Source of the DNA: Escherichia phage BAU.Micro_ELP-22 | Sequence record: OR699282.2 | DNA length: 64,000 nt | Reading direction: 5' to 3' (one strand) | In this document: in pieces, positions 14,659 through 27,833 of the stretch | Layout of the letters: every line of letters starts with the position of its first letter | Numbering within the stretch: position 1 is the stretch's first letter | Notes under the pieces: generated by a model | The model's input: only the letters and a program-made list of their open reading frames with translations | Told to the model about the DNA's origin: nothing | Databases searched by the model: none | Translations under genes and position numbers: made by a program

Positions 14659-14686
14659 AAATAATTGAAAAAGGGATTGACTCCGG

Positions 14687-14823: not shown

Positions 14824-14830
14824 GTTTTAC

Positions 14831-14903: not shown

Positions 14904-14911
14904 AAAAAAGA

Positions 14912-14940
14912 TTGACAATAGTTTGAAGTACTGATAAAAT
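14912..14940 (+). promoter_or_regulatory. sigma70-like promoter
   Basis: TTGACA 14912-14917, 17-bp spacer with AGTACT, TAAAAT 14935-14940. Confidence 0.5.
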
Positions 14941-14972
14941 AATCACATCAACTACTGATAAGGAAACATAAA

Positions 14973-15248
14973 ATGCGGATTCTACTGACAGCTAACGAAA
15001 TCGAACAAGTACTGACTACTAACCTGGAAGACTGGAAACGTGAAGCAGATATCCAGGCGGTTCAATGGCTTAACGATAAGTTAACGCCGGATGACTTAAG
15101 CAAGATTGTAGATCCTCAATTCTACGAAGATATTCACGACACCGCGTTAAGCGTCGAGGATGTACTAGATAAGCACTACATTGATACTGATTTGCAGGTT
15201 TACGGTCGTAAAAACTTTATCACTATTCACGATATTTACAATAATTAA
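14973..15248 (+). CDS. hypothetical protein (91 aa)
   Basis: ATG 14973, SD AAGGAA. Confidence 0.7.
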   Translation: MRILLTANEIEQVLTTNLEDWKREADIQAVQWLNDKLTPDDLSKIVDPQFYEDIHDTALSVEDVLDKHYIDTDLQVYGRKNFITIHDIYNN

Positions 15249-15249
15249 G

Positions 15250-15310
15250 TATTGACAAAGTATCTTAGTACTGTATAATAGTTTACATCGAGAGGGGGAA
15301 TGGTTCCCCT
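15250..15310 (+). promoter_or_regulatory. PeSL-like promoter cassette (identical 44-bp promoter, copy 1 of 3)
   Basis: TTGACA 15252-15257, TATAAT 15274-15279, hairpin GGGGGAATGGTTCCCC; same promoter at 15519 and 18096. Confidence 0.7.
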
Positions 15311-15334
15311 CCTAACTAAAAGAGAGAAATAAAA

Positions 15335-15517
15335 ATGGCTAAGTGCACTATCTGTAATAAAGAAATAGTATTAGTTCCAAGTGCCCGTGAACGTGCCGCT
15401 CGGTTCGGTGGCAAAGCGTCAGACTATACAAAAATGTTTACTGCCCATACAGCTTGCCAGGTAGCAAAACGTTCACAAGAAAGCGTAGAATTAATGCGTA
15501 AACTTTCCAAAAAATAA
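15335..15517 (+). CDS. small Cys-containing protein (60 aa)
   Basis: ATG 15335; CTICNKE ... HTACQ possible zinc-ribbon; SD-like AGAGAGA. Confidence 0.65.
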   Translation: MAKCTICNKEIVLVPSARERAARFGGKASDYTKMFTAHTACQVAKRSQESVELMRKLSKK

Positions 15518-15518
15518 G

Positions 15519-15582
15519 TATTGACAAAGTATCTTAGTACTGTATAATAGTTTACATCAAGTGAGGGGAAACGGTTCCCCTC
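15519..15582 (+). promoter_or_regulatory. PeSL-like promoter cassette (copy 2 of 3)
   Basis: TTGACA 15521-15526, TATAAT 15543-15548, hairpin GAGGGGAAACGGTTCCCCTC 15564-15582. Confidence 0.7.
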
Positions 15583-15605
15583 CTAACAAAGAGAGAGAAA
15601 TAAAA

Positions 15606-15929
15606 ATGGCTATGATCCTTACCCAGAAAGTGGAACTGAAAATTGTAACCTCCTTTGACATTAACGTTAATCGGTGGACTGATTCACACGGCAATACTTA
15701 CCACTCTTGCTACGTGTCTGCTTTAATTGGCGACCGCTGGGAAGACCTGGGACACGAAACCTTTACATACGGTTACGGTACACAAGGCGAATACACGGGC
15801 TTGGAGATCATTAAAGAAACCGTTATAGGTTTCAACCCGAAAGAAAAAGTTATTCACCGCATCGAGGAAGAGATCAACAAAGAAATAACAGTTCGCTACC
15901 ACGATGTAAAACGTAAGAAAGACATGTAA
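15606..15929 (+). CDS. hypothetical protein, early paralog family C (107 aa)
   Basis: Track ORF 15561 trimmed to ATG 15606; paralog of 8398..8721. Confidence 0.7.
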   Translation: MAMILTQKVELKIVTSFDINVNRWTDSHGNTYHSCYVSALIGDRWEDLGHETFTYGYGTQGEYTGLEIIKETVIGFNPKEKVIHRIEEEINKEITVRYHDVKRKKDM

Positions 15930-15943
15930 TAGAATCCATTTAA

Positions 15944-15980
15944 AGTACTATTTGACATTGCCCAGATAGTACTTTATAAT
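15944..15980 (+). promoter_or_regulatory. Class-II promoter
   Basis: AGTACT 15944-15949, TTGACA 15952-15957, 17-bp spacer with AGTACT, TATAAT 15975-15980. Confidence 0.65.
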
Positions 15981-16024
15981 AGACTCTAACTTGTAGTACT
16001 AACTTAACTAATAGGATGTATACC

Positions 16025-16420
16025 ATGATTACTAAATTCTACGCTACCCGTGAAGCTGCCCGTATTGTTGCACGCGAGGAAGGCGAAACATTTAAAGACA
16101 TGGGCAAAGATGCACCGAAAGGTCAACGCTGGGCCGTACAGTTCAAAGAGATCTCTGATATTGTGAATTCACCGGAGCCAGTACTAACAGCAGCAGAACT
16201 AAAACGAGCGGATTTACTGGCGTCAATACTTGATGCACAAGATGAGTTTATCGCTGATTCTGATATCAAAGTACAGACAAACCATACCGCATGGACTCAC
16301 GCGGATCACCTGGCAAACCTTAAGCGTCCAAGTGAACTGATTCGCAACCAGAAAGAGATCCGACACGACCGTAAGGGTAATCGTGTAACAGTATACAGTA
16401 AACGCCGCCAGGTTATCTAA
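16025..16420 (+). CDS. hypothetical protein, early paralog family B (131 aa)
   Basis: ATG 16025 (SD AGGA at 8 nt; alternative ATG 16016); paralog of 2837..3103. Confidence 0.65.
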   Translation: MITKFYATREAARIVAREEGETFKDMGKDAPKGQRWAVQFKEISDIVNSPEPVLTAAELKRADLLASILDAQDEFIADSDIKVQTNHTAWTHADHLANLKRPSELIRNQKEIRHDRKGNRVTVYSKRRQVI

Positions 16421-16441
16421 TAACTTGCAGTACTAACAACA

Positions 16442-16468
16442 CGGCGGGATCAGTTCCCGCCTTTTTTA
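16442..16468 (+). terminator. Rho-independent terminator
   Basis: GGCGGGA-TCAG-TTCCCGCC then TTTTTTA. Confidence 0.75.
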
Positions 16469-16481
16469 TAGGACAAACAAA

Positions 16482-16736
16482 ATGATTAAGGTTCAACTAT
16501 ATAAAGATAACATCTTACGGGTACACTATAAAGCACCACAGAGAATCATCACAAAGGCCGTACAGCTTGCTAATGAGTTTATTAATGGTAACCTATTACC
16601 TAGGAAGTTAAGCAACGGGAAACTGCGTGTAATCGACGTGGACACTAACAACAGGATAGTAATCGAGAACACAGGAAAGATAAACCTTTATGAGCATCAA
16701 CAATACAATAAGAAAATAAAACTAATATCACGTTGA
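16482..16736 (+). CDS. hypothetical protein (84 aa)
   Basis: ATG 16482; SD weak. Confidence 0.6.
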   Translation: MIKVQLYKDNILRVHYKAPQRIITKAVQLANEFINGNLLPRKLSNGKLRVIDVDTNNRIVIENTGKINLYEHQQYNKKIKLISR

Positions 16737-16790
16737 CAGTACTCAAATGTTTTAGTACTATATGTACATACCAACACGGGGAGAAACAAA

Positions 16791-17033
16791 ATGATTACTT
16801 TAGAAAAACGTATCAAAGAAACTACATCGCTGGTGGAACTGTTAACAGTACTCAAATGTAAAACTACTCGGTTTAGTACACCGGACTTTATTAATATGGT
16901 TGATGTTAACGGTCGTTATCGTATTGCAGTAGAACAAGGCACGGCAAAAGTATTCAGTACTAAAAACACTAAGGAAGTGATTCACGCGGTTAGTGTGAAA
17001 AAAGTGGTTGCCATTGATAGTAAAGTACTGTAA
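16791..17033 (+). CDS. hypothetical protein (80 aa)
   Basis: ATG 16791, SD GGGGAG. Confidence 0.65.
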   Translation: MITLEKRIKETTSLVELLTVLKCKTTRFSTPDFINMVDVNGRYRIAVEQGTAKVFSTKNTKEVIHAVSVKKVVAIDSKVL

Positions 17034-17064
17034 GATAGTTTCATTAACTCAAGGAGAACATGCA

Positions 17065-17649
17065 ATGCGTAATTATACTAAATTCATCCGTACCCTGTCA
17101 GAAATGGAAACCAACAAAGAGATCCTTTCAGCTTGTCGGTTAGCTGGCCTGGAGATCATCGGTGCTGGTTCTTCCCGTATAGTTTTCGCTTTAAATGATC
17201 GGTTAGTGATTAAGGTCGCGAATTGTGATGCGGGTGTAGAACAAAATGAAACTGAATGTAAGGTATGGAATTTTTTAGACTATGACCGCCCTCAGTTGAA
17301 ACAGTACTTTGCAAAGGTGCATATGCATTTATGCGATCCTGATAATATGTTTATCGTTATGGATCGGTTGAGTACTGCAAGCAAAGGCAGTGTGAAGCAC
17401 GTAAACGCGTGCAATGAATTAAAGTACAATATTAAACGTAATGCAATCGAACGCCAGCACCGCTTTGCTGATGCACTACAACACGTTGATGATACATTAT
17501 CAACACTAACGATAAGAGATATCAGAAAACAGAATATCGGCCAGGATCGTAATGGACTTATTAAAGTACTTGATTACGGTTTAACCAGCAATATCTGGAA
17601 TCAGTACTATAAAAAGCGTGATGTGGCAGCAAGTAAGGTAACACGATAA
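17065..17649 (+). CDS. minimal Ser/Thr protein kinase-like protein (194 aa)
   Basis: Track ORF 17008 trimmed to ATG 17065 (SD AAGGAG, 8 nt); Gly-rich loop GAGSSRIVF, Lys in VIKVAN, catalytic-loop-like RDIRKQNIG, DFG-like LDYG. Confidence 0.65.
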   Translation: MRNYTKFIRTLSEMETNKEILSACRLAGLEIIGAGSSRIVFALNDRLVIKVANCDAGVEQNETECKVWNFLDYDRPQLKQYFAKVHMHLCDPDNMFIVMDRLSTASKGSVKHVNACNELKYNIKRNAIERQHRFADALQHVDDTLSTLTIRDIRKQNIGQDRNGLIKVLDYGLTSNIWNQYYKKRDVAASKVTR

Positions 17650-17667
17650 AAAAGATTAAAAAAGGGA

Positions 17668-17746
17668 TTGACTCCGGTCAGTCCCTTTGCTATTATATAT
17701 CCATTGAGAGATAACTCACTGACCCATAGGGTGCGGAAGTGTATCT
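17668..17746 (+). repeat. Repeated intergenic element, type A
   Basis: TTGACTCCGGTCAGTCCCTTTGCTATTATAT then CATTGAGAGATAACTCACTGACCCATAGGGTGCGGAAGTGTATCT. Confidence 0.6.
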
Positions 17747-17785
17747 ATTATATAAGTATTCAGTACTGAAAACTATTTGATAAAA

Positions 17786-17850
17786 AGTACTTGCATTGTA
17801 CTTAGAATCAAGTATAATGTTTTATATCGAGAGGGGGAAATGGTTCTCCC
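17786..17850 (+). promoter_or_regulatory. PeSL-like promoter cassette
   Basis: AGTACT 17786-17791, TTGCAT 17791-17796, TATAAT 17813-17818, hairpin GGGGGAAATGGTTCTCCC 17833-17850. Confidence 0.7.
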
Positions 17851-17872
17851 TGGTATATTAAGGAATAAAATC

Positions 17873-18094
17873 ATGACTACAATGACTTGCATTTACGCTT
17901 CCAATCTTCTGAATGATGCGGCCTTTAATGTTGATTCAGAATATCAATGTTATCGGGATGAAAATAAAAAAGTTTTTGTAGTTGATAATAATGGTTTCCA
18001 TATTGAATTGCAATCCGGTTTCACTGGTGTTGATGGTAAATCAGTATGGGGCGTACAGGATGATAAAGGCACATATCATTTTAAACGTAATTAA
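17873..18094 (+). CDS. hypothetical protein (73 aa)
   Basis: Track ORF 17777 trimmed to ATG 17873; SD AAGGAA. Confidence 0.7.
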   Translation: MTTMTCIYASNLLNDAAFNVDSEYQCYRDENKKVFVVDNNGFHIELQSGFTGVDGKSVWGVQDDKGTYHFKRN

Positions 18095-18095
18095 G

Positions 18096-18156
18096 TATTG
18101 ACAAAGTATCTTAGTACTGTATAATAGTTTACATCAAGGGGAGAATAGTTCTCCCC
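18096..18156 (+). promoter_or_regulatory. PeSL-like promoter cassette (copy 3 of identical promoter)
   Basis: TTGACA 18098-18103, TATAAT 18120-18125, hairpin GGGGAGAATAGTTCTCCCC 18138-18156. Confidence 0.7.
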
Positions 18157-18180
18157 ACACCAATAAAAGGAAACATAATT

Positions 18181-18453
18181 ATGTCTAGCTACTCCGCTAC
18201 TATGATCATTAAAGATATGAACGGTAATCCTACTTCTGCTGGTGGATCATTTGGAAACATTAATTTAGATGGTCGGTTATCCATGCAATCAGCAATCGAT
18301 GCAGCGAAAGAAGTTTTTAAGAATGAATGTACTGTTAGTAAGCTGGATTATATGGGATTTGCTATCGAAAAAACTAATCGTTTTGTGAACTACAAAAAAC
18401 CATTGATGATTGATACTAACCTGAAAGCTAACGAAGTGGAGTACTTATTATGA
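18181..18453 (+). CDS. hypothetical protein (90 aa)
   Basis: ATG 18181, SD AAAGGAAA. Confidence 0.7.
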   Translation: MSSYSATMIIKDMNGNPTSAGGSFGNINLDGRLSMQSAIDAAKEVFKNECTVSKLDYMGFAIEKTNRFVNYKKPLMIDTNLKANEVEYLL

Positions 18454-18641
18454 CAGTTGAAGAAGTTAAAAAAGTACTGGCAGTACTACGCTATCATAAT
18501 CATTGCAAGGTGAAGAATGATCCTGATTATCTCGATTCATCCCTGGAAGAGGATACACTACAAGCAATAAGCCATATGCAAACATTAGCAAAGCGTATGA
18601 CTGAAAAGAACATGCCGGACTATATCGGAAATAAAATTTAA
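18450..18641 (+). CDS. hypothetical protein (63 aa)
   Basis: ATG 18450 overlaps upstream stop (ATGA). Confidence 0.6.
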   Translation: MTVEEVKKVLAVLRYHNHCKVKNDPDYLDSSLEEDTLQAISHMQTLAKRMTEKNMPDYIGNKI

Positions 18642-18643
18642 AA

Positions 18644-18710
18644 AGTACTTGCATTGTAGTTAGATTAACGTATAATGTTTTATATCGAGAGGGGGAAATG
18701 GTTTCCCCTC
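18644..18710 (+). promoter_or_regulatory. PeSL-like promoter cassette
   Basis: AGTACT 18644-18649, TTGCAT 18649-18654, TATAAT 18671-18676, hairpin GAGGGGGAAATGGTTTCCCCTC 18687-18710. Confidence 0.7.
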
Positions 18711-18728
18711 AAGTCCAGGAGATACACC

Positions 18729-18992
18729 ATGAACACTATCGAAATCACTATCAATGCACACGTATACGACAACGTAGTACTGCAAACTACTATGACCGCT
18801 AATGATACCAGTACTTTGCGGAATACTGTTATTAGTGCCGTATGTGCCGCTATCGGTGATGTCGCCCTGGAAAATGCAAAACACGTAAACGATGGTTTCA
18901 CTATGTGCAAACGTGATAACGCAAAACATATCATCGTAGAAGGTTACGGCGGTGTAGAATATAATGTTTATATGAAAAAAGTACTTGCATAA
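18729..18992 (+). CDS. hypothetical protein (87 aa)
   Basis: Track ORF 18675 trimmed to ATG 18729 (SD AGGAGA); C-terminal codons overlap -35 of next PeSL. Confidence 0.7.
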   Translation: MNTIEITINAHVYDNVVLQTTMTANDTSTLRNTVISAVCAAIGDVALENAKHVNDGFTMCKRDNAKHIIVEGYGGVEYNVYMKKVLA

Positions 18993-19041
18993 TAACTAAA
19001 ACAAAGTATAATGTTTTGCATAGGGGGAGATATCCTCCCCC
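18980..19041 (+). promoter_or_regulatory. PeSL-like promoter cassette
   Basis: AGTACT 18980-18985, TTGCAT 18985-18990, TATAAT 19007-19012, hairpin GGGGGAGATATCCTCCCCC 19023-19041. Confidence 0.7.
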
Positions 19042-19059
19042 ACTAAAAGGAGTAATAAA

Positions 19060-19284
19060 ATGGCTAACTTTGATGAACTGATGCGGGAAGTAGCTACCCT
19101 GGCAGAAGAAAAGAAATCATTCGATTCTATCTATAGCACCGCTCACCGTGATTCAGTACTGGCATGTAACCAGGATCAAAAAGATGAACTAATCGCCACC
19201 TATCATGAAGCATGGAAGTACTACCGACAATGGGAGAAAGAAGAAAGAGAGTCTACCATTGACGGCCTCAATAATCTAATCTAA
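19060..19284 (+). CDS. hypothetical protein (74 aa)
   Basis: ATG 19060, SD AAGGAG. Confidence 0.7.
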   Translation: MANFDELMREVATLAEEKKSFDSIYSTAHRDSVLACNQDQKDELIATYHEAWKYYRQWEKEERESTIDGLNNLI

Positions 19285-19296
19285 AAGTTTTATTTC

Positions 19297-19333
19297 AGTA
19301 CTATTGACATAGCTTGATAGTACTGATGTAATA
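19297..19333 (+). promoter_or_regulatory. Class-II promoter
   Basis: AGTACT 19297-19302, TTGACA 19304-19309, AGTACT in spacer, -10-like GTAATA. Confidence 0.55.
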
Positions 19334-19360
19334 ACTTTACTAACTACAAGGGGAAACATA

Positions 19361-19618
19361 ATGGAACAGTTCACACAATATCGGGTAAATCCTCAAGCTA
19401 TGGCCTACGTAGAAGACCATAAAACATTACCAGTACTAACACCAATTAAAGGCCATATCTATCGTGCAATGTCATGGAATACCGCCCAGGATAGATATAC
19501 TACCGCTGGCGTGGGTATGTATTGCGGGAATGGTGAATGGTTTGATCCAAATAATCCGGTAGCCATTGACAGTACTGAAAAAATGAAATGGGCCGACTAC
19601 ATCGAAGATATTTCATAA
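19361..19618 (+). CDS. hypothetical protein (85 aa)
   Basis: ATG 19361, SD GGGGAAA. Confidence 0.65.
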   Translation: MEQFTQYRVNPQAMAYVEDHKTLPVLTPIKGHIYRAMSWNTAQDRYTTAGVGMYCGNGEWFDPNNPVAIDSTEKMKWADYIEDIS

Positions 19619-19625
19619 AAACTAT

Positions 19626-19686
19626 TTGACAGTACTAACCAGTAATGTATAATGTTTTACATAGAGCGGGGGAATAGTTCTCCCGC
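19626..19686 (+). promoter_or_regulatory. PeSL-like promoter cassette
   Basis: TTGACA 19626-19631, TATAAT 19648-19653, hairpin GCGGGGGAATAGTTCTCCCGC 19666-19686. Confidence 0.7.
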
Positions 19687-19708
19687 CAATAGTTTGGAGT
19701 AAAACATT

Positions 19709-19909
19709 ATGTCTATCGCTATCGCCCTGGTTGAAGTACTGAAAGAAGCTAAAGCCAACCAGATCGACGTAAAGATCCAGGAACTACAAAACGGCGTAAT
19801 CGGCTGTACTTGTACCGCTGGTGGAGCGGCAGACTATCGAGAACACGAATCACTCGAATCACTGGTTCGGTATCTTACCATGATCGTTGATGATTGGAGA
19901 ATCATCTAA
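19709..19909 (+). CDS. hypothetical protein (66 aa)
   Basis: ATG 19709, SD GGAG. Confidence 0.65.
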   Translation: MSIAIALVEVLKEAKANQIDVKIQELQNGVIGCTCTAGGAADYREHESLESLVRYLTMIVDDWRII

Positions 19910-19930
19910 CAAAAAAGAATAAAAAAGGGA

Positions 19931-20004
19931 TTGACTCCGGTCAGTCCCTTTGCTATTATATACGCATAGACAAAAACTAGCCCACAGGGTGCATAGGTGT
20001 ATCC
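19931..20004 (+). repeat. Repeated intergenic element, type A
   Basis: TTGACTCCGGTCAGTCCCTTTGCTATTATAT then CGCATAGACAAAAACTAGCCCACAGGGTGCATAGGTGTATCC. Confidence 0.6.
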
Positions 20005-20070
20005 AAAATATATAGTTAATAACGGTGAGTAACTATCTGCTGGTGGAGTGAAAACTATTAATAAAAAAGT

Positions 20071-20100
20071 ATTGACAAAGTATATCAGTACTGCGATAAT
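20071..20100 (+). promoter_or_regulatory. sigma70-like promoter
   Basis: TTGACA 20071-20076, spacer with CAGTACTG, GATAAT 20095-20100. Confidence 0.55.
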
Positions 20101-20153
20101 GTATCTCGTAGGGCGGCAATGGTGCAACGGCCCACAAAGTTAGGAGATTCAAA

Positions 20154-20486
20154 ATGAGTACTTCAATCGCTATCGTTAAAGCTTTCATCCGTACCAATGT
20201 TTCATCTGTATTCATCGACGGACTGGATCGTGAAGTAGAATACTCAATCATTATCGCACAGACTGCAAACGGTGCTCGGTATATCCTCAATGATAGTGAA
20301 GCAAATCACTACTACTTCACTAAAGCTACTGGCTTTAAACGCATCGATGCCGATGTAGTATACGCTAAGATGAATAAGCTGGTAGACAAGATTAACGCTA
20401 AAGGCACTATTGATTTACAGTACTGGACCGAAACCGATCCAGAATATGGATCTCACCGCTACCTGAATCCAGGTATCAAAATGTAA
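20154..20486 (+). CDS. hypothetical protein (110 aa)
   Basis: ATG 20154, SD AGGAGA. Confidence 0.7.
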   Translation: MSTSIAIVKAFIRTNVSSVFIDGLDREVEYSIIIAQTANGARYILNDSEANHYYFTKATGFKRIDADVVYAKMNKLVDKINAKGTIDLQYWTETDPEYGSHRYLNPGIKM

Positions 20487-20488
20487 AA

Positions 20489-20554
20489 AGTACTTGCATA
20501 GTACTTAGATTCATGTATAATGTTTTACATAGAGAGGGGGAAATGGTTCTCCCT
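20489..20554 (+). promoter_or_regulatory. PeSL-like promoter cassette
   Basis: AGTACT 20489-20494, TTGCAT 20494-20499, TATAAT 20516-20521, hairpin GAGGGGGAAATGGTTCTCCCTC 20533-20554. Confidence 0.7.
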
Positions 20555-20575
20555 CCTAAATTAAGGAGTTTTATC

Positions 20576-20977
20576 ATGACCTTCTCAATCACTTCCTTCG
20601 CTGACGTTTTAGTACTGGCTCGGACTTTTGGTAAAGATGCACTGGAGTACGCTGTAAGTAATGGCACTATCCAACCGGAACAGTGCCGCATCATTGGAAA
20701 CTGCAAACGTTGGGCGGTATCCAATACTATTGCACTGGAAAACTTCCACGATGGCAACAATGAATATTCTGTTGATGTAGTATTCGAAGCCGTTGATCTC
20801 GGCGGTATCTATAATACTAACCTGAATGATGTGCGTATCGTTCGCACTGGGTTCGGTGCTTATGATGTATCTATTCGTGAAGCTATGAACACCGGATACA
20901 TTAGCAAGGACTTACTTGCTCACATCATGCAGCTGTGTACGGAACGTAACGAAGCACGCACTATCTTAGGACTGTAA
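20576..20977 (+). CDS. hypothetical protein (133 aa)
   Basis: Track ORF 20513 trimmed to ATG 20576; SD AAGGAG. Confidence 0.7.
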   Translation: MTFSITSFADVLVLARTFGKDALEYAVSNGTIQPEQCRIIGNCKRWAVSNTIALENFHDGNNEYSVDVVFEAVDLGGIYNTNLNDVRIVRTGFGAYDVSIREAMNTGYISKDLLAHIMQLCTERNEARTILGL

Positions 20978-21045
20978 GCGTTACACATCACCAAACATCA
21001 TAGGCCGCTCTCTAGCGGCCTTAACTATATCAGGAGTACATACAC

Positions 21046-21255
21046 ATGATCTATACAGTATACAGCGTCCTAGGCACTATTGCAGGCGTACATGATAACG
21101 TCGATAGTGCTATGCGTACAGTACTGCAACAGGTTCCACTAAAGCCTAAGACCATTAAGCAGATGACAGCACGACTAACCAGGGCGACCGATGGCGTGGA
21201 AGTATGGCAGGACTACGGGGATACACAGATAATCGTTAGCGTAACGAAGGATTAA
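21046..21255 (+). CDS. hypothetical protein (69 aa)
   Basis: ATG 21046, SD AGGAG; last gene before the compositional shift. Confidence 0.65.
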   Translation: MIYTVYSVLGTIAGVHDNVDSAMRTVLQQVPLKPKTIKQMTARLTRATDGVEVWQDYGDTQIIVSVTKD

Positions 21256-21505
21256 TGCGTAAAGGGATCTAGTACTGATTCAGAAAAAAGTCAAGGCGTT
21301 TTTTAAATTATGCGTTAAAAAAATGCATAGGTAATCCCTTGACTTTTTTGAAATAAAAGGGATTGGACTATGGCAAAATGCGTAGGGGGCTAAAGGGCGG
21401 GTAACCTTTAGCGACTTCGATAAAGGGGTATTACGAATAAAATGTTATTGATTTTTTATACGAATCGTATATTATAGGATTGATATTATTTTTAATGGAG
21501 TCCCT
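21256..21505. promoter_or_regulatory. Boundary intergenic region with nested inverted repeats; probable array promoter
   Basis: AAAAAAGTCAAGG (21283-21296) / CCTTGACTTTTTT (21337-21350); GCTAAAGG..CCTTTAGC hairpin near 21388-21412; TTGATT 21448-21453 plus TATTAT-like -10. Confidence 0.45.
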
Positions 21506-21703
21506 ATGCGTATTTTAACTAAAGAACAGCACCACGAAAGACTTATCAATAACATGGCTATGATAATGTATAAGTCCCATGACCGTGGTATTGCCTATAA
21601 GCGTGAATTAATTATGGCACTATTCATTGGAACTAACTTTCAGGAAAGGTATGTCAACGATTGGATTTGGTATTTAATTGAAGATATAACGAGTAAACTA
21701 TGA
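21506..21703 (+). CDS. small tandem family F1 paralog (65 aa)
   Basis: ATG 21506, SD GGAG; C-terminal FIGTNFQERYV..WI..LI..I core. Confidence 0.65.
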   Translation: MRILTKEQHHERLINNMAMIMYKSHDRGIAYKRELIMALFIGTNFQERYVNDWIWYLIEDITSKL

Positions 21704-21900
21704 AAATGCGTATTTTAAATAAAGAAGAATATCAATCACTGTTACGTAAAAACTTCACAAAGATTTATAATACAGACACACACGTAGAACGAATGGAGTT
21801 ATACCTTTTGATTACTTTGGGAACTAACTATCAGGAAAGATGGGTGATTCAATATATGGATACATTGAAAAATAAAATATTGTCCACGAGGAAACAATGA
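21700..21900 (+). CDS. F1 paralog (66 aa)
   Basis: ATGA stop/start overlap; LGTNYQERWV core. Confidence 0.65.
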   Translation: MKMRILNKEEYQSLLRKNFTKIYNTDTHVERMELYLLITLGTNYQERWVIQYMDTLKNKILSTRKQ

Positions 21901-22106
21901 AAACTATAACACGAACCCAATCATACGGTCTTATCTTGAAATACATGGACTTAATGGTGGATATCAGCAAAGACCTTCCTAAAACTGAAATTGAAGTTGC
22001 AAGAGCAGAGATCCGCATGTTGGCTGTACTGAACACAAACCATCAGGAAGATTATGTTGAAGAATGGATTCGATTTTTAATAGAAGATATTAAGAGTAAA
22101 CTATGA
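21897..22106 (+). CDS. F1 paralog (69 aa)
   Basis: ATGA overlap; LNTNHQEDYV core. Confidence 0.65.
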   Translation: MKTITRTQSYGLILKYMDLMVDISKDLPKTEIEVARAEIRMLAVLNTNHQEDYVEEWIRFLIEDIKSKL

Positions 22107-22318
22107 TTATTATAGAAAACTCATATCAATATACTGAACGCATCGCTGCCAGACAACTTGAAATCCTCATAATATACGAAGAGACTTCTGATTTAAACTT
22201 AGCCGAGGTATTGGAAAATGATATACTATTGGGTGCATTCTTAGGAACAGACTATCAGAAGTATTATGAGGAAAAGTATTTGTCATCTCTTGAGAAATAT
22301 ATCAGGAGCAAATTATGA
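22103..22318 (+). CDS. F1 paralog (71 aa)
   Basis: ATGA overlap; LGTDYQKYY core. Confidence 0.65.
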   Translation: MIIIENSYQYTERIAARQLEILIIYEETSDLNLAEVLENDILLGAFLGTDYQKYYEEKYLSSLEKYIRSKL

Positions 22319-22527
22319 TTTTTTTAACACCAGAAGAATATAAGAAACGTTTCAATTCCGCACAGGGTGAAATCTTACTTATATACCTTTCAAATGCAGA
22401 CCTTAACTTATCAAGGGTATTAGAAAAAGATTTACTTATGGGTGCATTCCTTGATACAGACTTTCAGGTGTATTATGTAGGGGAATACTTAATTGCACTT
22501 CAGAATTATATCAGGAGTAAACTATGA
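22315..22527 (+). CDS. F1 paralog (70 aa)
   Basis: ATGA overlap; LDTDFQVYYV core; close to 22103..22318. Confidence 0.65.
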   Translation: MIFLTPEEYKKRFNSAQGEILLIYLSNADLNLSRVLEKDLLMGAFLDTDFQVYYVGEYLIALQNYIRSKL

Positions 22528-22742
22528 AACATTTAAGTAACTCCGAGAAGAATAAAATTATCGTTGCTGCAATAAACAAATATTTTACACTTCCTCACAC
22601 AGAAGGTTTATGTGTAAGGGAACACAGGATAAACACCACCGATATACGCATGATGGCTGTACTGGGGACGAACTTTCAGGAAGAGTATGTTGTTGCACAC
22701 ATAGTTGCCCTCACTGATCTAATAAGGGACAAATGTAAATGA
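22524..22742 (+). CDS. F1 paralog (72 aa)
   Basis: ATGA overlap; LGTNFQEEYV core. Confidence 0.65.
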   Translation: MKHLSNSEKNKIIVAAINKYFTLPHTEGLCVREHRINTTDIRMMAVLGTNFQEEYVVAHIVALTDLIRDKCK

Positions 22743-22996
22743 AACACTTAACTGATGATGAATTTGAAACTATAATTCGTAAACTAACCCCCATCACAAG
22801 GATAGTCTACGGTGACCCCAGCCTTACATGGAACCAAATGCGAGCTAAAGTTAATGAGCTATGGTTGCTGTACTTTATGGGGACTCAATATCAAGATAAG
22901 TTTTGCACAGAATATATCGAACAATTAACGAATGTTATACAGGATAAACTAGATGATTATTTGCTCACAAAACATGAAGACTTTATCAGGAGTTGA
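22739..22996 (+). CDS. F1 paralog (85 aa) with C-terminal extension
   Basis: ATGA overlap; MGTQYQDKF core; stop displaced so the reading frame runs into the next gene. Confidence 0.6.
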   Translation: MKHLTDDEFETIIRKLTPITRIVYGDPSLTWNQMRAKVNELWLLYFMGTQYQDKFCTEYIEQLTNVIQDKLDDYLLTKHEDFIRS

Positions 22997-23225
22997 GTAT
23001 CAAACTGCCCTATTCTCTTTAATCCATGCCCTTAGAAAAAACAATGCCTTATATGGTGCACCTGAAGTGGATGTTATCAACGGTGAACTTTATCTTATGA
23101 AATTCATTGGAACAAACTATCAAGATCTGTTCATTCAACGATACTTATCAGCATTAAGAAACCAAATCCAATATAAAACCCAGAGAGCCAAAAAAGAATG
23201 GAATAAACAATGCGACACAGACTAA
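22953..23225 (+). CDS. F1 paralog (90 aa; start uncertain, alt ATG 22974)
   Basis: IGTNYQDLFI core. Confidence 0.6.
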   Translation: MIICSQNMKTLSGVEYQTALFSLIHALRKNNALYGAPEVDVINGELYLMKFIGTNYQDLFIQRYLSALRNQIQYKTQRAKKEWNKQCDTD

Positions 23226-23458
23226 ATCACAAAATGTATTGTAAACTATTACAGACACTGGCACAGAAACACTATGACACGGTATCTGGAATATTACCCT
23301 ATGATATCATGCGTTTACTTCACTGTGAGGCCGAGATGCTTGTACTGATGACAGGCACTGATAAAAACGCAATTGCCAAATCAATAGATATGTTCATCGA
23401 AGCACACTGCCAACACATGAGAACCGAAATCTGGAGGAAAGAGAATGATAATCCTTAA
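23210..23458 (+). CDS. F1 paralog, divergent (82 aa; start uncertain)
   Basis: MTGTDKNAIAKSIDMFI core variant. Confidence 0.55.
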   Translation: MRHRLNHKMYCKLLQTLAQKHYDTVSGILPYDIMRLLHCEAEMLVLMTGTDKNAIAKSIDMFIEAHCQHMRTEIWRKENDNP

Positions 23459-23660
23459 TGAGTATCAGTATCATTGGAGGTTACAAACTATCAAATCAAA
23501 AGTGTATAGTATTGTGTTAAACAAATCTATTGCACAAGAGGACAAATGTGTTATAATAGCTGAAATGAAGTTGGGTGCTTTCGTAGGGACAAACTATCAA
23601 AACATCTACACTGACGTATTGTTAAGTGCCTTACGTAACAAGGTGGTATCCAAAATATGA
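23445..23660 (+). CDS. F1 paralog (71 aa)
   Basis: VGTNYQNIY core. Confidence 0.65.
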   Translation: MIILNEYQYHWRLQTIKSKVYSIVLNKSIAQEDKCVIIAEMKLGAFVGTNYQNIYTDVLLSALRNKVVSKI

Positions 23661-23875
23661 GAAATTTACAAGGCTTTGAATACATCAGACTCCTGAAAAC
23701 ATGTGGAAGCAGAAGGAGAATGATATCAAGCGATAAGAGCATCCAAGCTAACCTTAAGCACGCACTAGTAACTGAACTCTATGTAGGTGCACTCTTAGGC
23801 ACAAACTATCAACAAATGTATGTAGATCTATGGATTGACGCTCTACAGAAAGAGGTTAAAAGTAAATGCAAATGA
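23657..23875 (+). CDS. F1 paralog (72 aa)
   Basis: ATGA overlap; LGTNYQQMYV core. Confidence 0.65.
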   Translation: MRNLQGFEYIRLLKTCGSRRRMISSDKSIQANLKHALVTELYVGALLGTNYQQMYVDLWIDALQKEVKSKCK

Positions 23876-24084
23876 TTAATTTAAGTAAAGACGAATTTTA
23901 TGTTATACTGGCGAAAACTTATCCAGCACGTAAGGCCGTTTATGATAGTCACATTATTGAACCCTCAAAGAAGTTGATTTTAGTAAATGAGATAAAGATG
24001 CTTTCAGTCTTAGGAACAAACTATCAAGAGAATGCTGTACTGATGTTAATTGATGCCCTCCAGAGAGAGGTTAAACGTAAATGA
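23866..24084 (+). CDS. F1 paralog (72 aa)
   Basis: LGTNYQENAV core. Confidence 0.65.
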   Translation: MQMINLSKDEFYVILAKTYPARKAVYDSHIIEPSKKLILVNEIKMLSVLGTNYQENAVLMLIDALQREVKRK

Positions 24085-24311
24085 AAATGATTAATTTAAC
24101 TTACCATGAATATCAAAAACGTTTAAATGCATCCAGAGATATAAGGATTCAAATATTCAATAACAAAAAATTGAAACCTGATACCAGAAGAATCAAAATC
24201 ATAGAAGCCGTGTTGTGTAACTTCCTAGGGACTAACTATCAGGAAGGTAAGGTAGAAAACTATCTTATAGAACTCATGAATAGTATTGAAAATAAATGTA
24301 AGGGTAATTAA
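24081..24311 (+). CDS. F1 paralog (76 aa)
   Basis: ATGA overlap; LGTNYQEGKV core. Confidence 0.65.
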   Translation: MKMINLTYHEYQKRLNASRDIRIQIFNNKKLKPDTRRIKIIEAVLCNFLGTNYQEGKVENYLIELMNSIENKCKGN

Positions 24312-24312
24312 C

Positions 24313-24552
24313 ATGAAAATGATTAAATTATCTCAAGCAAAATATAAAGAACGCCTGGTGAAAATTGCACCTGGACTTAATGAAATCCATCACGGAGAAG
24401 TCATTAAACACGGAAATAAGATGATTATGAAACTTGAGTTAAAGGTGGGTGCATTCATAGGAACAAACTATCAGGAGTATTATGTAGATGAATACATAAT
24501 CGCACTTAAGAGATACATTGGAAGAAAACTATATATACAAACTAAAGAATAG
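24313..24552 (+). CDS. F1 paralog (79 aa)
   Basis: Track ORF 24286 trimmed to ATG 24313; IGTNYQEYYV core; shares about 50-bp junction repeat with next gene. Confidence 0.6.
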   Translation: MKMIKLSQAKYKERLVKIAPGLNEIHHGEVIKHGNKMIMKLELKVGAFIGTNYQEYYVDEYIIALKRYIGRKLYIQTKE

Positions 24553-24581
24553 TATTGAAAATAAATGTAAGGGTATTTAAC

Positions 24582-24845
24582 ATGAAAATGATTAATTTAA
24601 GTAAAGATGAATATACCGAGCGTATGACAAAAATTACGCACAAACGTAATACAATCTATCACAACCCAGAAATTCAACACAGTAAGAAAATGATTATGAT
24701 GCGTGAGTTAAAGATGGGTGTATTCTTAGGAACAAACTATCAAGATACAGAAGTAAATCGCTTAATCGCGGAGTTACTACTGGAAATCAGAGGTAAGCTG
24801 TACTTTCATCAAATGACCCAACCACTGAGGTGTACTGATCGATGA
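24582..24845 (+). CDS. F1 paralog (87 aa)
   Basis: Track ORF 24555 trimmed to ATG 24582; LGTNYQDTEV core. Confidence 0.6.
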   Translation: MKMINLSKDEYTERMTKITHKRNTIYHNPEIQHSKKMIMMRELKMGVFLGTNYQDTEVNRLIAELLLEIRGKLYFHQMTQPLRCTDR

Positions 24846-25093
24846 ATGCGATGAATATTGTGAATAACATCAGATTAGCAGAAAGATTTGATAGAATTGG
24901 GGAAGCACTGAGAAGATACGATAAAGAATATGGTCATTTGAGCTTTTCTATAGAAAAGAGATATGAACTTGAAGCAGAGTTTAAAATGCAGAGTCTCTTA
25001 GGCACACAGTATCAAAACCAATATATTCAAACTTGGATTGATTGTTTAATCCAGACAATTTACGTAAGAAACATTAAATGCAAAATGAAATGA
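24842..25093 (+). CDS. F1 paralog (83 aa)
   Basis: ATGA overlap; LGTQYQNQYI core. Confidence 0.65.
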   Translation: MNAMNIVNNIRLAERFDRIGEALRRYDKEYGHLSFSIEKRYELEAEFKMQSLLGTQYQNQYIQTWIDCLIQTIYVRNIKCKMK

Positions 25094-25332
25094 TATACTT
25101 AACACATGATGAGTTAACAGAAAGACTAGATAAATCCAAAAGACTTACAAATAAACTTCCTCACAACACAAATCAAACCCCAGCAGAAAGGAGTGCAGAA
25201 GTTTTATTCCAAAGATTACCATACCTTCTTGGAACTGATAGGCAAGAGTATCACATTGAACGTATAATTAAATATCTCAAAATTACTATTAAGGAAAAAG
25301 TAAATGCAAATGAAATACTTAACAGACGATGA
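25078..25332 (+). CDS. F1 paralog (84 aa; start uncertain)
   Basis: LGTDRQEYHI core; close paralog of 25304..25555. Confidence 0.6.
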   Translation: MQNEMIYLTHDELTERLDKSKRLTNKLPHNTNQTPAERSAEVLFQRLPYLLGTDRQEYHIERIIKYLKITIKEKVNANEILNRR

Positions 25333-25555
25333 GTTAAAAGAACGACTAATTAAATCCAGAAAACTTACAAATCAACTTCCAAACGACACAAACAAGTCAC
25401 ATGCCGAAAGGAGTGCAGAAGTTTTATACATTCAACTCATGTACTTTCTTGGCACTGACAGACAAGAGTATTACATTGAAAGTATGCTTCGATATCTTAA
25501 ATTCTCTATAAAGGAAAAGATACATGCTCAAGAATTTAAAAATCCTAACAGTTAA
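25304..25555 (+). CDS. F1 paralog (83 aa; start uncertain)
   Basis: LGTDRQEYYI core; shares HAERSAEVL with previous gene. Confidence 0.6.
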   Translation: MQMKYLTDDELKERLIKSRKLTNQLPNDTNKSHAERSAEVLYIQLMYFLGTDRQEYYIESMLRYLKFSIKEKIHAQEFKNPNS

Positions 25556-25766
25556 TGAATATCATACGATTGTAATGAAAACTAATAGTGCAATTTCTAA
25601 AAAATCAAACCCCAAGTACATACTGGAACACACATTTGAAGAACGTCAATTAGCTTTAGTTGAAGCAAAACTTCTTGCACTCCTAGGAACAAACTATCAA
25701 GAAGAATACATCAGAAAACTAATATACCTTTTAACTAAACATATAAGAAAAAGAAAAAATGCATGA
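25524..25766 (+). CDS. F1 paralog (80 aa)
   Basis: LGTNYQEEYI core. Confidence 0.6.
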   Translation: MLKNLKILTVNEYHTIVMKTNSAISKKSNPKYILEHTFEERQLALVEAKLLALLGTNYQEEYIRKLIYLLTKHIRKRKNA

Positions 25767-25993
25767 AACACTTGACAGATGATGAACATGGGCTTATAGT
25801 AATGGATGTAATCAACATCGAATACAAAAAGTTGATACGCTACCGTTGTTATGAAGATAAGCAACTCGTTCTAGCAGAACAGAAGTTGTTTCGACTCTTA
25901 AACACAAACTTCCAAGCACAATACGAAGAATCGTATATGTACCTTTTGGCGAGGAAAGCAAAAAGAGATTATGAAAATTTTAAGCAAAGGTGA
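25763..25993 (+). CDS. F1 paralog (76 aa)
   Basis: ATGA overlap; LNTNFQAQY core. Confidence 0.65.
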   Translation: MKHLTDDEHGLIVMDVINIEYKKLIRYRCYEDKQLVLAEQKLFRLLNTNFQAQYEESYMYLLARKAKRDYENFKQR

Positions 25994-26186
25994 TTCAGTA
26001 ATATTACTTATAGAGAGTTCAAGTAAATTCTTAAACATAACACTGTCTGATATAGATGAAGATGACAAAGAAGTACTGAGAGCAGATTTAAGAGTACTGT
26101 TACATATCGGAACAAACCTACAAGAAGAATATGTAGAGTGCTACATCAATGAACTTAAAGAATTAGTACTGAGAACATGCAAATGA
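25971..26186 (+). CDS. F1 paralog (71 aa)
   Basis: IGTNLQEEYV core. Confidence 0.6.
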   Translation: MKILSKGDSVILLIESSSKFLNITLSDIDEDDKEVLRADLRVLLHIGTNLQEEYVECYINELKELVLRTCK

Positions 26187-26419
26187 AAATCCTTTCACCA
26201 AGTGAATACCACGAACTATTAAGTAGTTTAATTCTAAAATTGTATATAGCAAAGACCACAGATTTACCTGATGAAGAAAAAAATATTCTAATGAGTGAAA
26301 TCTATGTTAATTCTACCCTAGGGACTAACTATCAAGAATGTAATATTAATGATTACATCAAAGAACTAAAAAGGTTTATCCAATGCAAATGCGAATCATT
26401 ACCGAAACAGAATACCTAA
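26177..26419 (+). CDS. F1 paralog (80 aa)
   Basis: LGTNYQECNI core; close paralog of next gene. Confidence 0.65.
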   Translation: MQMKILSPSEYHELLSSLILKLYIAKTTDLPDEEKNILMSEIYVNSTLGTNYQECNINDYIKELKRFIQCKCESLPKQNT

Positions 26420-26625
26420 CAATCATAAATGGACTGTTTTTGAAGTTATTTGCCATTAACACATCAAAACTACCAGATACTGATAAAATTATTAAGTTAA
26501 ATGAAATCTATGTTCAAGCTACACTGGGAACTAACTATCAAGAAGCCAATGTGTATAATTACATTAATACACTCAAAAGGGTAATAAAATTAAAATGCAC
26601 AAACAGCCAATACACAAACCACTAG
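26383..26625 (+). CDS. F1 paralog (80 aa)
   Basis: LGTNYQEANV core. Confidence 0.65.
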   Translation: MQMRIITETEYLTIINGLFLKLFAINTSKLPDTDKIIKLNEIYVQATLGTNYQEANVYNYINTLKRVIKLKCTNSQYTNH

Positions 26626-26825
26626 GAACAGCAGAATACATTGAACTCATGGCATTACACTTCTCATCCTTTCAGAAACTTAGGCGAGAATCAAAGAATG
26701 ATTTAGAATATACCATCAGAGGTTCCGATTTAAGAATGCTTCTCACCCTAGACACAGATTCCCAAGAGCGATTTGTCAATGAGCATATTAGAGCACTTTT
26801 AATGGAAATTCAAAGTAAACTATGA
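26595..26825 (+). CDS. F1 paralog (76 aa)
   Basis: LDTDSQERFV core. Confidence 0.6.
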   Translation: MHKQPIHKPLGTAEYIELMALHFSSFQKLRRESKNDLEYTIRGSDLRMLLTLDTDSQERFVNEHIRALLMEIQSKL

Positions 26826-27037
26826 AGATAATATCAAACCAAGAGTACTTGGCACTATTCAGGAAGAATAATCACAAATATATGGCACTTGATTCAAGAA
26901 CTGATATAAGTGAACTTGAAAAAAATCTTTTGCGTTCAGATATGATAGTACTGACACTCTTAGGAACACAGCATCAAGAGAGAACTGTTAATTCACACAT
27001 AGGGATTCTTATGCAGATAGTACAGGAAAAGATATGA
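26822..27037 (+). CDS. F1 paralog (71 aa)
   Basis: ATGA overlap; LGTQHQERTV core. Confidence 0.65.
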   Translation: MKIISNQEYLALFRKNNHKYMALDSRTDISELEKNLLRSDMIVLTLLGTQHQERTVNSHIGILMQIVQEKI

Positions 27038-27255
27038 GAATCATAACACAACAAGATATTCTTAAGTTCACAAGGGTTCATGCATCTGAATTTGATGCTA
27101 TATTATCAAAAAGTTACAACAACCCTTATACACAAGATGTACATTACAGTGAATTATGGATGTATATACTTTTAGGTACAAATAAGCAAGAGCAAGCCGT
27201 ACAGAAGTATTTGACAGCTTTACGTGATGCTACTGCTAATGGAGTACATGTTTAA
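27034..27255 (+). CDS. F1 paralog (73 aa)
   Basis: ATGA overlap; LGTNKQEQAV core. Confidence 0.65.
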   Translation: MRIITQQDILKFTRVHASEFDAILSKSYNNPYTQDVHYSELWMYILLGTNKQEQAVQKYLTALRDATANGVHV

Positions 27256-27256
27256 T

Positions 27257-27499
27257 ATGAAAGTACTGACAGAACTAGAAATGTATCATAGATTTAATAA
27301 GTACTATCATTTACTTAAGCCTATACAGAGGATTAAATGTCCATTTGAAGAGAAACAGGTTTTAATCTATGAGCACAAGTTCTTTGTATCATTAGGTACA
27401 GATCAACAAGAGTACTATTTGACGTTGTACTTGATTACATTAATAGATTTAATTCACTATAAAACCAAACAAGCTAATAAAGAGAAATATGAAAACTAA
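27257..27499 (+). CDS. F1 paralog (80 aa)
   Basis: Track ORF 27224 trimmed to ATG 27257; LGTDQQEYYL core. Confidence 0.6.
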   Translation: MKVLTELEMYHRFNKYYHLLKPIQRIKCPFEEKQVLIYEHKFFVSLGTDQQEYYLTLYLITLIDLIHYKTKQANKEKYEN

Positions 27500-27833
27500 T
27501 ATACAACTCAAGGTATATAAATCATTTGAACATACATATATCAAAAGTAGTCTATGTAGAGATGTAATGGATTACAAGGGTAAGCCATTCACAATTACCT
27601 ATGATTCTTATGTTAGTGATTTATATATATCATTTGTTAATTACGAAAATAAAATATACAAGCACGTTGATATTAAAGATTTAAGTACTTTATCACCAGA
27701 GGAATACTTTCAGGAATCATTAGTATGGGATTTAGAGTTTCCTATGCCATTAGTACATAAGATGATAGTACTAATGAAAGAATCTAAACAGGAGCCTAAT
27801 GGTGATTATGAAGAACACACAGTTGAGTATTAA
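27489..27833 (+). CDS. large tandem family F2 paralog (114 aa)
   Basis: PEEYFQESLVWD core followed by short helical C-terminus. Confidence 0.6.
   Translation: MKTNIQLKVYKSFEHTYIKSSLCRDVMDYKGKPFTITYDSYVSDLYISFVNYENKIYKHVDIKDLSTLSPEEYFQESLVWDLEFPMPLVHKMIVLMKESKQEPNGDYEEHTVEY

Follow-up and report, generated by a model that had tools for sequence, protein, structure and literature searches.

What lies at about 21.26 kb in the genome of Escherichia phage BAU.Micro_ELP-22 (sequence record OR699282.2), where short, separately transcribed genes give way within a few hundred base pairs to tightly packed, AT-rich ones? The DNA analysed here, referred to as the window, is one strand of 64,000 nucleotides, and the locus in question is the spacer at positions 21256-21505. 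A first-pass annotation, made from the sequence alone, had seen in it a sharp compositional and organisational boundary with nested inverted repeats, a second hairpin and a weak promoter, and had interpreted it as a major regulatory switch or recombination junction. The site is indeed a major discontinuity, with a terminator-like hairpin, a promoter and an indel hot spot, but its primary identity had been missed. It is highly probable that the junction is the inner (right-hand) edge of the left copy of a direct terminal repeat (DTR) of ~21.4 kb, which would end at position 21407 with a sequence, ...GGGCGGGTAACCT, identical to the right end of the virion DNA.

The window covers the initial 64 kb of the genome of an Asteriusvirus, a PBECO4/121Q-like jumbo coliphage, starting at its physical left end. 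A megablast search with the stretch from 20 to 23 kb of the window matched 43 phage records at 89-99% identity, nearly all of them Escherichia and Salmonella jumbo phages of this genus (PBECO4, 121Q, phAPEC6, UB and others). The first 2.5 kb of the window aligns base 1 to base 1 with the records of BF17, vB_Ec-M-J, CRJP21, fEgEco12 and E9.1; because it starts at the first base of these five linear-style records, window position 1 is the left genome end given by the depositors.

The records of these relatives also locate the inner end of the repeat. In vB_Ec-M-J (GenBank OQ718158), 'Direct Terminal Repeats' are annotated at 1..21525, and the end of this feature is homologous to window position 21407; it lies in the spacer, 152 nt past the stop codon of the homologue of the window's open reading frame (ORF) 21046-21255. 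When the last 1.2 kb was compared for the five records that hold both repeat copies, each of them (5/5) was found to end exactly 152 nt past the stop codon of the last repeat gene. In all five the final bases are ...GGGCGGGTAACCT, ending at window position 21407 in the alignment, and the same repeat stands in direct orientation at both genome ends. Their internal left copies run on with T(T)AGCGACTTCG, like the window. Three further records, those of G17, WPEC3 and WPEC5, were deposited in the opposite orientation; there the last repeat gene lies 152 nt from the first base (tblastn coordinates), which gives the same end.

Published work on the group agrees with this layout; here and below, statements about published accounts follow the accessible parts of the papers. 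A repeat of 20,993 bp was reported for fEgEco12 from PhageTerm and restriction digests, repeats of ~20.5 kb and 20,668 bp were reported for BF17 and Sharanji, respectively, from PhageTerm alone, and one of 22.5 kb was predicted from read depth for the relative CBB. Across the group, repeat lengths that are annotated, implied by record coordinates or obtained by PhageTerm/restriction fall at 20.1-21.5 kb. Judged by the ends of the five relatives, the vB_Ec-M-J annotation, GC content and gene spacing, the left copy of the long DTR would span 1..21407 (+ strand) as a GC-richer block of ~53 short, individually promoted genes. On the sequence data, the right end of the packaged DNA is made between 21407 and 21408. 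The true genome ends and the gene dosage would follow, with each gene in 1-21407 carried twice per virion.

Two points weigh against this reading. The window holds only one repeat copy, and both the second copy and the termini of BAU.Micro_ELP-22 itself are deduced from relatives at 89-99% identity. Moreover, the eight concordant record ends are not fully independent of one another, as some depositors may have followed the orientation of earlier records.

The identity of the locus as a terminal repeat end accounts for the step in composition and organisation without a new regulatory device. The step itself is real and sharp, as had been proposed from the sequence. GC content is 0.387 in 1-21407 and 0.323 in 21408-64000, and a single change-point is placed by maximum likelihood at 21428, only 21 nt from the repeat end, with a log-likelihood ratio of 129 (at most 31 in 500-nt block shuffles). 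The flanking 1-kb stretches have GC contents of 0.432 (left) and 0.325 (right), and neighbouring 250-nt segments go from 0.43 to 0.32. The shift lies inside coding sequence and affects all three codon positions (GC1/2/3 of 0.49/0.35/0.39 on the left versus 0.40/0.27/0.30 on the right), and codon usage differs between the two sides with a chi-square of 1063 (60 degrees of freedom); uniform composition across the junction is thus not seen. The described passage from individually promoted, early-type genes to AT-richer coupled arrays holds up equally well: the median intergenic gap is 82 nt on the left and -4 nt on the right, the share of gene pairs that overlap or abut rises from 4% to 66%, and coding density goes from 65% to 93%. 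On the + strand, scanned from 12 to 31 kb, seven perfect TTGACA-N16/17-TATAAT promoters were found at 12.9-19.7 kb, and no perfect-consensus sigma-70 promoter was found past 21.4 kb. Composition and organisation would change at the junction because two different modules meet there, namely a repeat of short genes with their own strong sigma-70 promoters and a single-copy genome that would open with long, operon-like arrays of paralogous small genes.

A step this sharp in GC content and codon usage is also what a mosaic or recombination seam would leave, that is, a GC-richer left block and AT-rich arrays of different origin, joined for example via shuffling cassettes of the type known as PeSL. 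The region just past the cut favours such a view. An extra gene lies between the cut site and the array in BF17 and in A4 (with its own promoter in BF17), and because these two phages each carry an additional gene there, the junction is a spot of gene gain or loss; Turkey5 and JNE01 keep the spacer and have different genes after it. The arms of the hairpin described below likewise resemble PeSL-type stem-loops, which have been proposed as mediators of shuffling. Nevertheless, a seam is compatible with the terminal-repeat explanation and is part of the truth instead of an alternative to it, and it offers no reason for record ends and PhageTerm boundaries to coincide at this very base. In addition, the last repeat gene, the spacer and the cut site follow one another in the same order across genus-level groups, and therefore the seam would be old and stable, not a recent join. 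As a separate explanation we consider it unlikely. The comparison with related phages that the first-pass annotation had suggested shows an indel hot spot at the junction, and the boundary itself coincides with the DTR end.

The conservation of the spacer beyond the genus provides further evidence for the terminal-repeat reading. Spacers were aligned from the divergent Asteriusvirus members A4, JNE01 and Turkey5, Klebsiella phage fENko-Kae01, Xanthomonas phage XbC2, Erwinia phage Kaldavass and one IMG/VR contig. In the other genus-level groups the neighbouring protein is only 33-40% identical, and the spacer has mostly diverged, leaving a few islands: an AGTACT box soon past the stop codon, an A-run followed by GTYAAG, AGGTAATCCCTTGACTTTT, GACTATG, and YCT^T(T)AGC, in which the caret marks the cut. 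The island AGGTAATCCCTTGACTTTT is present in PBECO4/121Q-type Asteriusvirus and in the XbC2 group, and has diverged in fENko-Kae01, JNE01 and A4. It is the cut-site sequence that forms the most conserved part of this otherwise diverged spacer. The PhageTerm-annotated repeat of fENko-Kae01 ends ...GTCATGCCT^TAGCC, with GATTGGACTATG exactly 32 nt upstream, as in the window; the Kaldavass record ends ...AGTAATGCT, and its relative XbC2 runs on with TAGCGGCC at the internal junction. Because the fENko-Kae01 boundary as well as the Kaldavass record end and XbC2 junction carry YCT^TAGC, the alignments indicate that the cut position and its core YCT^T(T)AGC are conserved well beyond the genus, in two more distant jumbo-phage groups. 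The full arrangement GATTGGACTATG-N32-YCT^TAGC is found in Asteriusvirus and fENko-Kae01, and the XbC2/Kaldavass group shares only YCT^TAGC and the GACTATG core. A search of IMG/VR with the bipartite terminus pattern matched only 121Q itself.

In the window, the terminus site GGGTAACCT^TTAGC occupies 21399..21412 (+ strand), the cut between 21407 and 21408 being given by the five records that end ...GGTAACCT and by G17, WPEC3 and WPEC5; the site sequence GGGTAACCTTTAGC is essentially unique in the 64 kb. The box GATTGGACTATG (21361..21372, + strand), 32 nt upstream of the cut-site CCT, is unique in the window save for one site with two mismatches, and it recurs with the same N32 spacing in JNE01, Turkey5 and Klebsiella phage fENko-Kae01. 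Together, these comparisons place the DNA end at GATTGGACTATG-N32-CCT^T(T)AGC, a site that a packaging nuclease would recognise.

The cut falls within the second hairpin of the first-pass annotation, which had overlooked that this element contains the right end of the virion DNA. The hairpin, GCTAAAGG-gcgggtaa-CCT^TTAGC, spans 21389..21412 on the + strand with the DTR end in its 3′ arm, and GCTAAAGG-N8-CCTTTAGC folds at -13.5 kcal/mol (z = -4.1). We rejected it as a structural signal, given that the pairing is bulged in phages of the TT type (CCTTAGC) and that other genera pair differently, while the sequence is conserved. It is read here as sequence, not as shape. The window has CCTTTAGC at the cut site (21407-21409), while CCTTAGC is found in the near-identical metagenomic Logan contig DRR517660_225 (L042) and in most close relatives; the additional T of the window may be a recent change or a homopolymer sequencing difference, and the matching left border lies outside the window.

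The gene that precedes the spacer, the last one of the DTR (21046..21255, + strand), encodes 69 amino acids (aa) and belongs to phrog_17833, a family of unknown function, according to the ORF list and its PHROG match. Its homologues in fENko-Kae01, XbC2 and Kaldavass, at 33-40% identity, adjoin the same kind of junction. A search for protein homologues of this gene returned only close relatives with at least 86% identity, whose contigs gave TT-type junctions and no left borders. Pfam and PHROG searches with the flanking genes gave matches to function-unknown families only. Not every member of the family has this junction architecture, because in Klebsiella phage RaK2 (JQ513383.1, L029 701-1191) the next gene begins only 8 nt past the homologue, and neither a spacer nor a terminus motif separates the two. 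A repeat boundary in Alcyoneusvirus, if there is any, must lie elsewhere.

Upstream of the cut, the spacer contains a nested hairpin followed by a U-run (21284..21349, + strand), identified by repeat search and folding. Its outer 13-bp stem (21284-21296/21337-21349) is formed by AAAAAAGTCAAGG and CCTTGACTTTTTT, which are complementary at 13/13 positions across a 40-nt interval; the window has five perfect inverted repeats of this kind (13 nt or longer, loop of up to 60 nt), against 0.1 expected from shuffles, and two of the others are merely paired copies of a palindromic motif. The inner 9-bp stem (21308-21316/21322-21330), which includes G.U pairs, is the TATGCG...GCATA palindrome noted earlier. 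At 74 nt in all, the nested hairpin has a folding energy of -23.2 kcal/mol (z = -4.6, matched by 0/200 shuffles) and is followed by UUUUUU, and the fold of the whole 250-nt spacer has a z of -3.9. All the elements first described for the spacer, i.e. the nested inverted repeats, the palindrome, the second hairpin and the weak promoter, are therefore present and exceed chance.

The nested hairpin also shows signs of acting as RNA. The + strand transcript is more stable than that of the - strand (-23.2 versus -16.6 kcal/mol), the + strand being the more stable one in every lineage compared, and a double change from G.U to U-A in the vB_Ec-M-J type preserves pairing. At this place A4 forms another perfect hairpin, built on the same AGTCAA/TTGACT core, and fENko-Kae01 has a nested hairpin there with a different inner sequence. 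Because of the U-run, the G.U-biased strand stability and the pairing-preserving double change, we suggest that the element acts as + strand RNA, most likely as a PeSL-type stem-loop that terminates rightward early transcription of the repeat. It would thereby close the early-gene module, and would resemble a T4-type PeSL that has lost its -10. Several observations count against this interpretation. The hairpin is weak or absent in Turkey5 and JNE01, and it is atypical of an intrinsic terminator, with a long AT-rich stem and a 40-nt structured interior in place of a compact G+C-rich stem and a loop of 3-8 nt; a simple consensus terminator scan did not list it. A sub-threshold Rfam match to bglG-cis-reg (32.9 bits, with a cut-off of 80) corresponds to a long hairpin of generic type with a U-run, and membership was not accepted.

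The loop end and 3′ arm of the hairpin consist of the block GGTAATCCCTTGACTTTT (21330..21347, + strand), which is unique in the window, includes the -35-like hexamer TTGACT, and is identical at the homologous position in XbC2, Kaldavass and the IMG/VR contig (L032). We considered this 18-mer as a packaging-specific signal; the idea is weakened by its presence in unrelated IMG/VR contigs as part of a hairpin plus promoter. In those viral contigs the 3′-arm sequence occurs as AAAAGTTAAGGG-TAAT-CCCTTGACTTTT-N17-TAAAAT, a stem-loop that includes a promoter's -35. Its conservation need not reflect packaging, since the 18-mer belongs to a promoter cassette in unrelated phages. In the window, ATTGGA stands 17 nt past the TTGACT of the nested hairpin, no -10 hexamer is found at PeSL spacing, and the consensus scan reported no promoter at this TTGACT. 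Canonical hairpin-plus-promoter copies do occur in the repeat, three in all: an identical 38-nt element, AAAGGGATTGACTCCGGTCAGTCCCTTTGCTATTATAT, is found at 14670-14707, 17661-17698 and 19924-19961. Each copy combines a 12-bp hairpin, whose 5′ arm contains the -35 hexamer TTGACT, with a TATTAT -10 downstream of it, and resembles T4-type PeSL cassettes.

Past the cut, a consensus scan identifies the first promoter of the unique region, TTGATT-N16-TATTAT, at 21448..21475 on the + strand (9/12 matches). The form in the window (TTGATT) is weak; in relatives the -35 is TTGACT and the -10 is TATTAT or TAAAAT, with the spacing unchanged despite diverged flanks. This promoter would drive the first member of a paralogue array. 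The sequence, the ORF list and PHROG place a ribosome-binding site (RBS), GGAG (21498-21501), and the first array gene (21506-21703, 65 aa, phrog_4148, with its ATG at 21506) at 21498..21703 on the + strand. From there, AT-rich, translationally coupled arrays extend over 21506..42390 (+ strand), as determined by all-against-all BLASTP clustering, gap statistics and PHROG. They include a 26-member family of ~70-residue paralogues (phrog_4148), the first member of which is the first gene after the DTR. Taken in order, the junction comprises the stop codon of the last repeat gene, the AGTACT box, the nested hairpin with its U-run, GATTGGACTATG-N32-CCT^T(T)AGC, the sigma-70 promoter, the RBS and the first array gene.

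With both a terminator-like hairpin plus U-run and a conserved sigma-70 promoter present, and with promoter density and gene coupling shifting here, the junction might be thought purely transcriptional, the terminator ending the early operon set and the promoter starting the next class, without any relation to genome ends. However, eight related records end exactly 58 nt past the hairpin, at window 21407, and the accessible published PhageTerm and restriction data put the terminal repeat boundary there. The most conserved spacer sequence is the cut site, neither the promoter nor the hairpin. Furthermore, the downstream promoter is again sigma-70-like, of the same type as those upstream, and is kept in relatives, so that the supposed change to a different promoter class is not borne out. 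A boundary of transcription alone is very improbable in light of these results.

Another possibility is prompted by the terminal repeat itself. In T5, DNA entry is halted at a stop signal in an untranslated region rich in inverted repeats and palindromes, situated at the inner end of the left repeat and better preserved than the genes beside it. The present repeat likewise has, at its inner end, a non-coding block kept across genera next to a protein of 33-40% identity, and it carries strong host-type promoters; DNA entry could pause at the conserved repeats until repeat-encoded proteins are made. Yet the region measures ~250 nt, as against more than 1 kb in T5, and no DnaA box (TTWTNCACA) is found between 16994 and 22901, nor is this motif enriched in the window. 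Two-step injection is not reported in the accessible parts of the papers on these phages, and the conserved elements are accounted for by the terminator-type hairpin and the cut site. We give an injection stop signal hardly any credence, and return to the DTR end and the question of how it might be made.

The right border was compared with the left one, where the unique end of the genome meets the start of the repeat. The left border was read in eleven phages, ten of them usable; CMSTMSU was left out of the co-variation count, its record being unverified and the sequence to the left of its terminus unrelated. Usable left borders read ...cAGTACTGAtatg[c/t]CACTA(A)^AGTAGGCAGAggaagTCTGCCgTACT, with conservation starting at a AGTACTGA box and a hairpin directly inside the end. 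Read inwards, the left border is CRCTA(A)^AG and the right border, as its reverse complement, is C-G-CTA(A)^AG; the flanks CRCTA(A)^ and ^(T)TAGYG are thus inverted with respect to each other, the motif being short enough for chance to be possible. In fENko-Kae01 the borders read GCTA^TA (left) and GCTA^AG (right, reverse complement), and a hairpin of different sequence stands right at the left end. The length of the A/T-run is concordant at the two borders in all seven phages in which both are readable, among more than 40 Asteriusvirus records in existence: AAA/TTT in vB_Ec-M-J and BF17, and AA/TT in fEgEco12, E9.1, 121Q, JNE01 and A4. These phages are grouped differently by the sequences that flank the two borders, and this argues against simple linkage.

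Because the outer flanks of both borders read 5′-C-R-C-T-A-(A)^AG in inverted orientation, a nuclease shared by the two borders can be envisaged. In a concatemer, one enzyme would nick the two borders of a single repeat on opposite strands, and strand-displacement synthesis would then give each daughter genome its own repeat copy. The inverted, co-varying flanks fit this nick-and-displace model without proving it. More specifically, both borders may carry one inverted recognition/cleavage motif, 5′-C-R-C-T-A-(A)^A-G, with a co-evolving A-run, to which the right border adds GATTGGACTATG-N32-YCT^TAGC; we put this forward tentatively and regard it as somewhat doubtful. The shared motif amounts to 5-7 nt in Asteriusvirus and only to GCTA in fENko-Kae01, and the co-variation rests on the two AAA/TTT phages, where a homopolymer sequencing error is possible; both facts speak against it. 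No convincing copy of the right-border box was found mirrored inside the left end. If the proposal is true, a site-specific nuclease, not headful measurement, would define the ends in this T4-related jumbo-phage lineage, and the whole 21-kb repeat would be duplicated by strand displacement at each packaging event. Its confirmation would make the termini predictable for most deposited Rak2-like genomes, which are now recorded as circular or arbitrarily opened, and would provide a testable model for the regeneration of the 21-kb repeat in packaging.

Some features of the left end itself deserve mention. The hairpin right at the left terminus, AGTAGGCAGA-ggaag-TCTGCCgTACT (1..26, + strand), folds at -12.2 kcal/mol (z = -2.6), and in fENko-Kae01 a different 8-bp hairpin, TATCTTCT-N7-AGAAGATA, occupies the same place. 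In the unverified CMSTMSU record (MH494197.1, L014, ~locus position 1209, - strand), homology to all relatives breaks exactly at the left terminus, with unrelated sequence directly before AGTAGGCAG; such a break would arise if an assembler had fused a physical DNA end with other sequence. Most relatives have a AGTACTGA box at a distance of 11-12 nt upstream of the left terminus, as cAGTACTGAtatgcCACTA^AGTAGG (L008 781-801, L012 1040-1059, L017, and L018-L021 at ~485-505); in BF17 and fEgEco12 it is found farther upstream. Box, TG and TATGCC/TATGTC together resemble an extended -10 promoter, the start of which would fall at about the first bases of the repeat. It is possible that transcription is linked to end formation at the left border.

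The same box is a recurrent motif of the window. At the right-hand junction it is found at 21271..21278 (+ strand), where AGTACTGA is one of ~100 copies by motif count, and an AGTACT box stands at this position in JNE01, A4, XbC2 and Kaldavass, though not in fENko-Kae01. As the core of the palindrome TCAGTACTGA, AGTACTGA has 101 matches in the window versus 2.4 expected, 61 of them within the terminal repeat (examples are at 365-393, 12905-12932, 14912-14940 and 20072-20100). Intergenic copies usually lie between -35 and -10, with TG one base before the -10, in the arrangement TTGACA-N9-AGTACTG-N-TATAAT. The motif looks like part of the early promoter consensus of the phage (an extended -10), or like an operator laid over it; AGTACT boxes are abundant in fENko-Kae01 and XbC2, too. 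At the far left, the first ~2.5 kb (1-2500) has no ATG-started ORF of at least 45 aa on the + strand, and in 121Q the corresponding stretch is free of annotated coding sequence for its first ~1.7 kb. This region of the window is packed with TCAGTACTGA palindromes, with 18 hits to the motif in the first 1.6 kb, and includes perfect inverted pairs of 13-14 nt at 610-685 and 1530-1596. Candidate roles for region 1-2500 are a packaging or entry signal, a protein-binding array and a promoter cluster.

The elements of the junction have counterparts in several known systems. PeSLs of T4-type phages are described as stem-loops with an A-run/G-run and C-run/T-run, carrying sigma-70-like -35 hexamers and associated with indels between related phages, and these traits appear to recur here; the arms AAAAAAGTCAAGG/CCTTGACTTTTTT, with the embedded TTGACT, fit the description A3-4G3-loop-C3T3-4. 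Unlike a canonical PeSL, the copy at 21284-21349 has a 40-nt interior with a hairpin of its own and no -10 at the proper spacing, and would at best be a 'degraded' PeSL of the kind its authors describe, with the stem-loop and -35 kept and the -10 gone. We did not find PeSLs described for Rak2-like phages in the accessible literature on them. With T5, the layout of the repeat is shared: ~10 kb carrying the first-expressed genes on host-type promoters, and a conserved, untranslated, repeat-rich region at the inner end. In contrast to T5, DnaA boxes are missing near the junction, the region has one fifth of the length and no homologues of A1, A2 or dmp were identified, which makes this an analogy of layout only. 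The Twort-like (Kayvirus) staphylococcal phages have a long terminal repeat with early genes, and the 12-bp inverted repeats reported at the edges of their non-redundant genome are a precedent for the CRCTA(A) flanks, which appear to be arranged alike. The motif of the present phages is, however, shorter (5-7 nt as opposed to 12 nt) and unrelated in sequence, and the phages themselves are unrelated and infect other hosts.

The closest counterparts are Asteriusvirus and the other Rak2-like jumbo phages (vB_Ec-M-J, fEgEco12, BF17, Sharanji, CBB and fENko-Kae01), for all of which long DTRs are annotated, reported or predicted, the Asteriusvirus members sharing both genus and position with the window. 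Since the DTR layout has already been published for this group, the finding is real but largely ordinary. The accessible parts of the papers on Rak2-like repeats give lengths only, and the boundary sequence, the conserved cut site, the flanking inverted motif and the composition step were not found in them. What is added is modest, and consists of the anatomy of the terminus at base level, its conservation across genera and the inverted, co-varying flanks: a cut site that appears conserved in jumbo phages of Escherichia, Klebsiella, Erwinia and Xanthomonas, at the border of a repeat whose two flanks are inverted.

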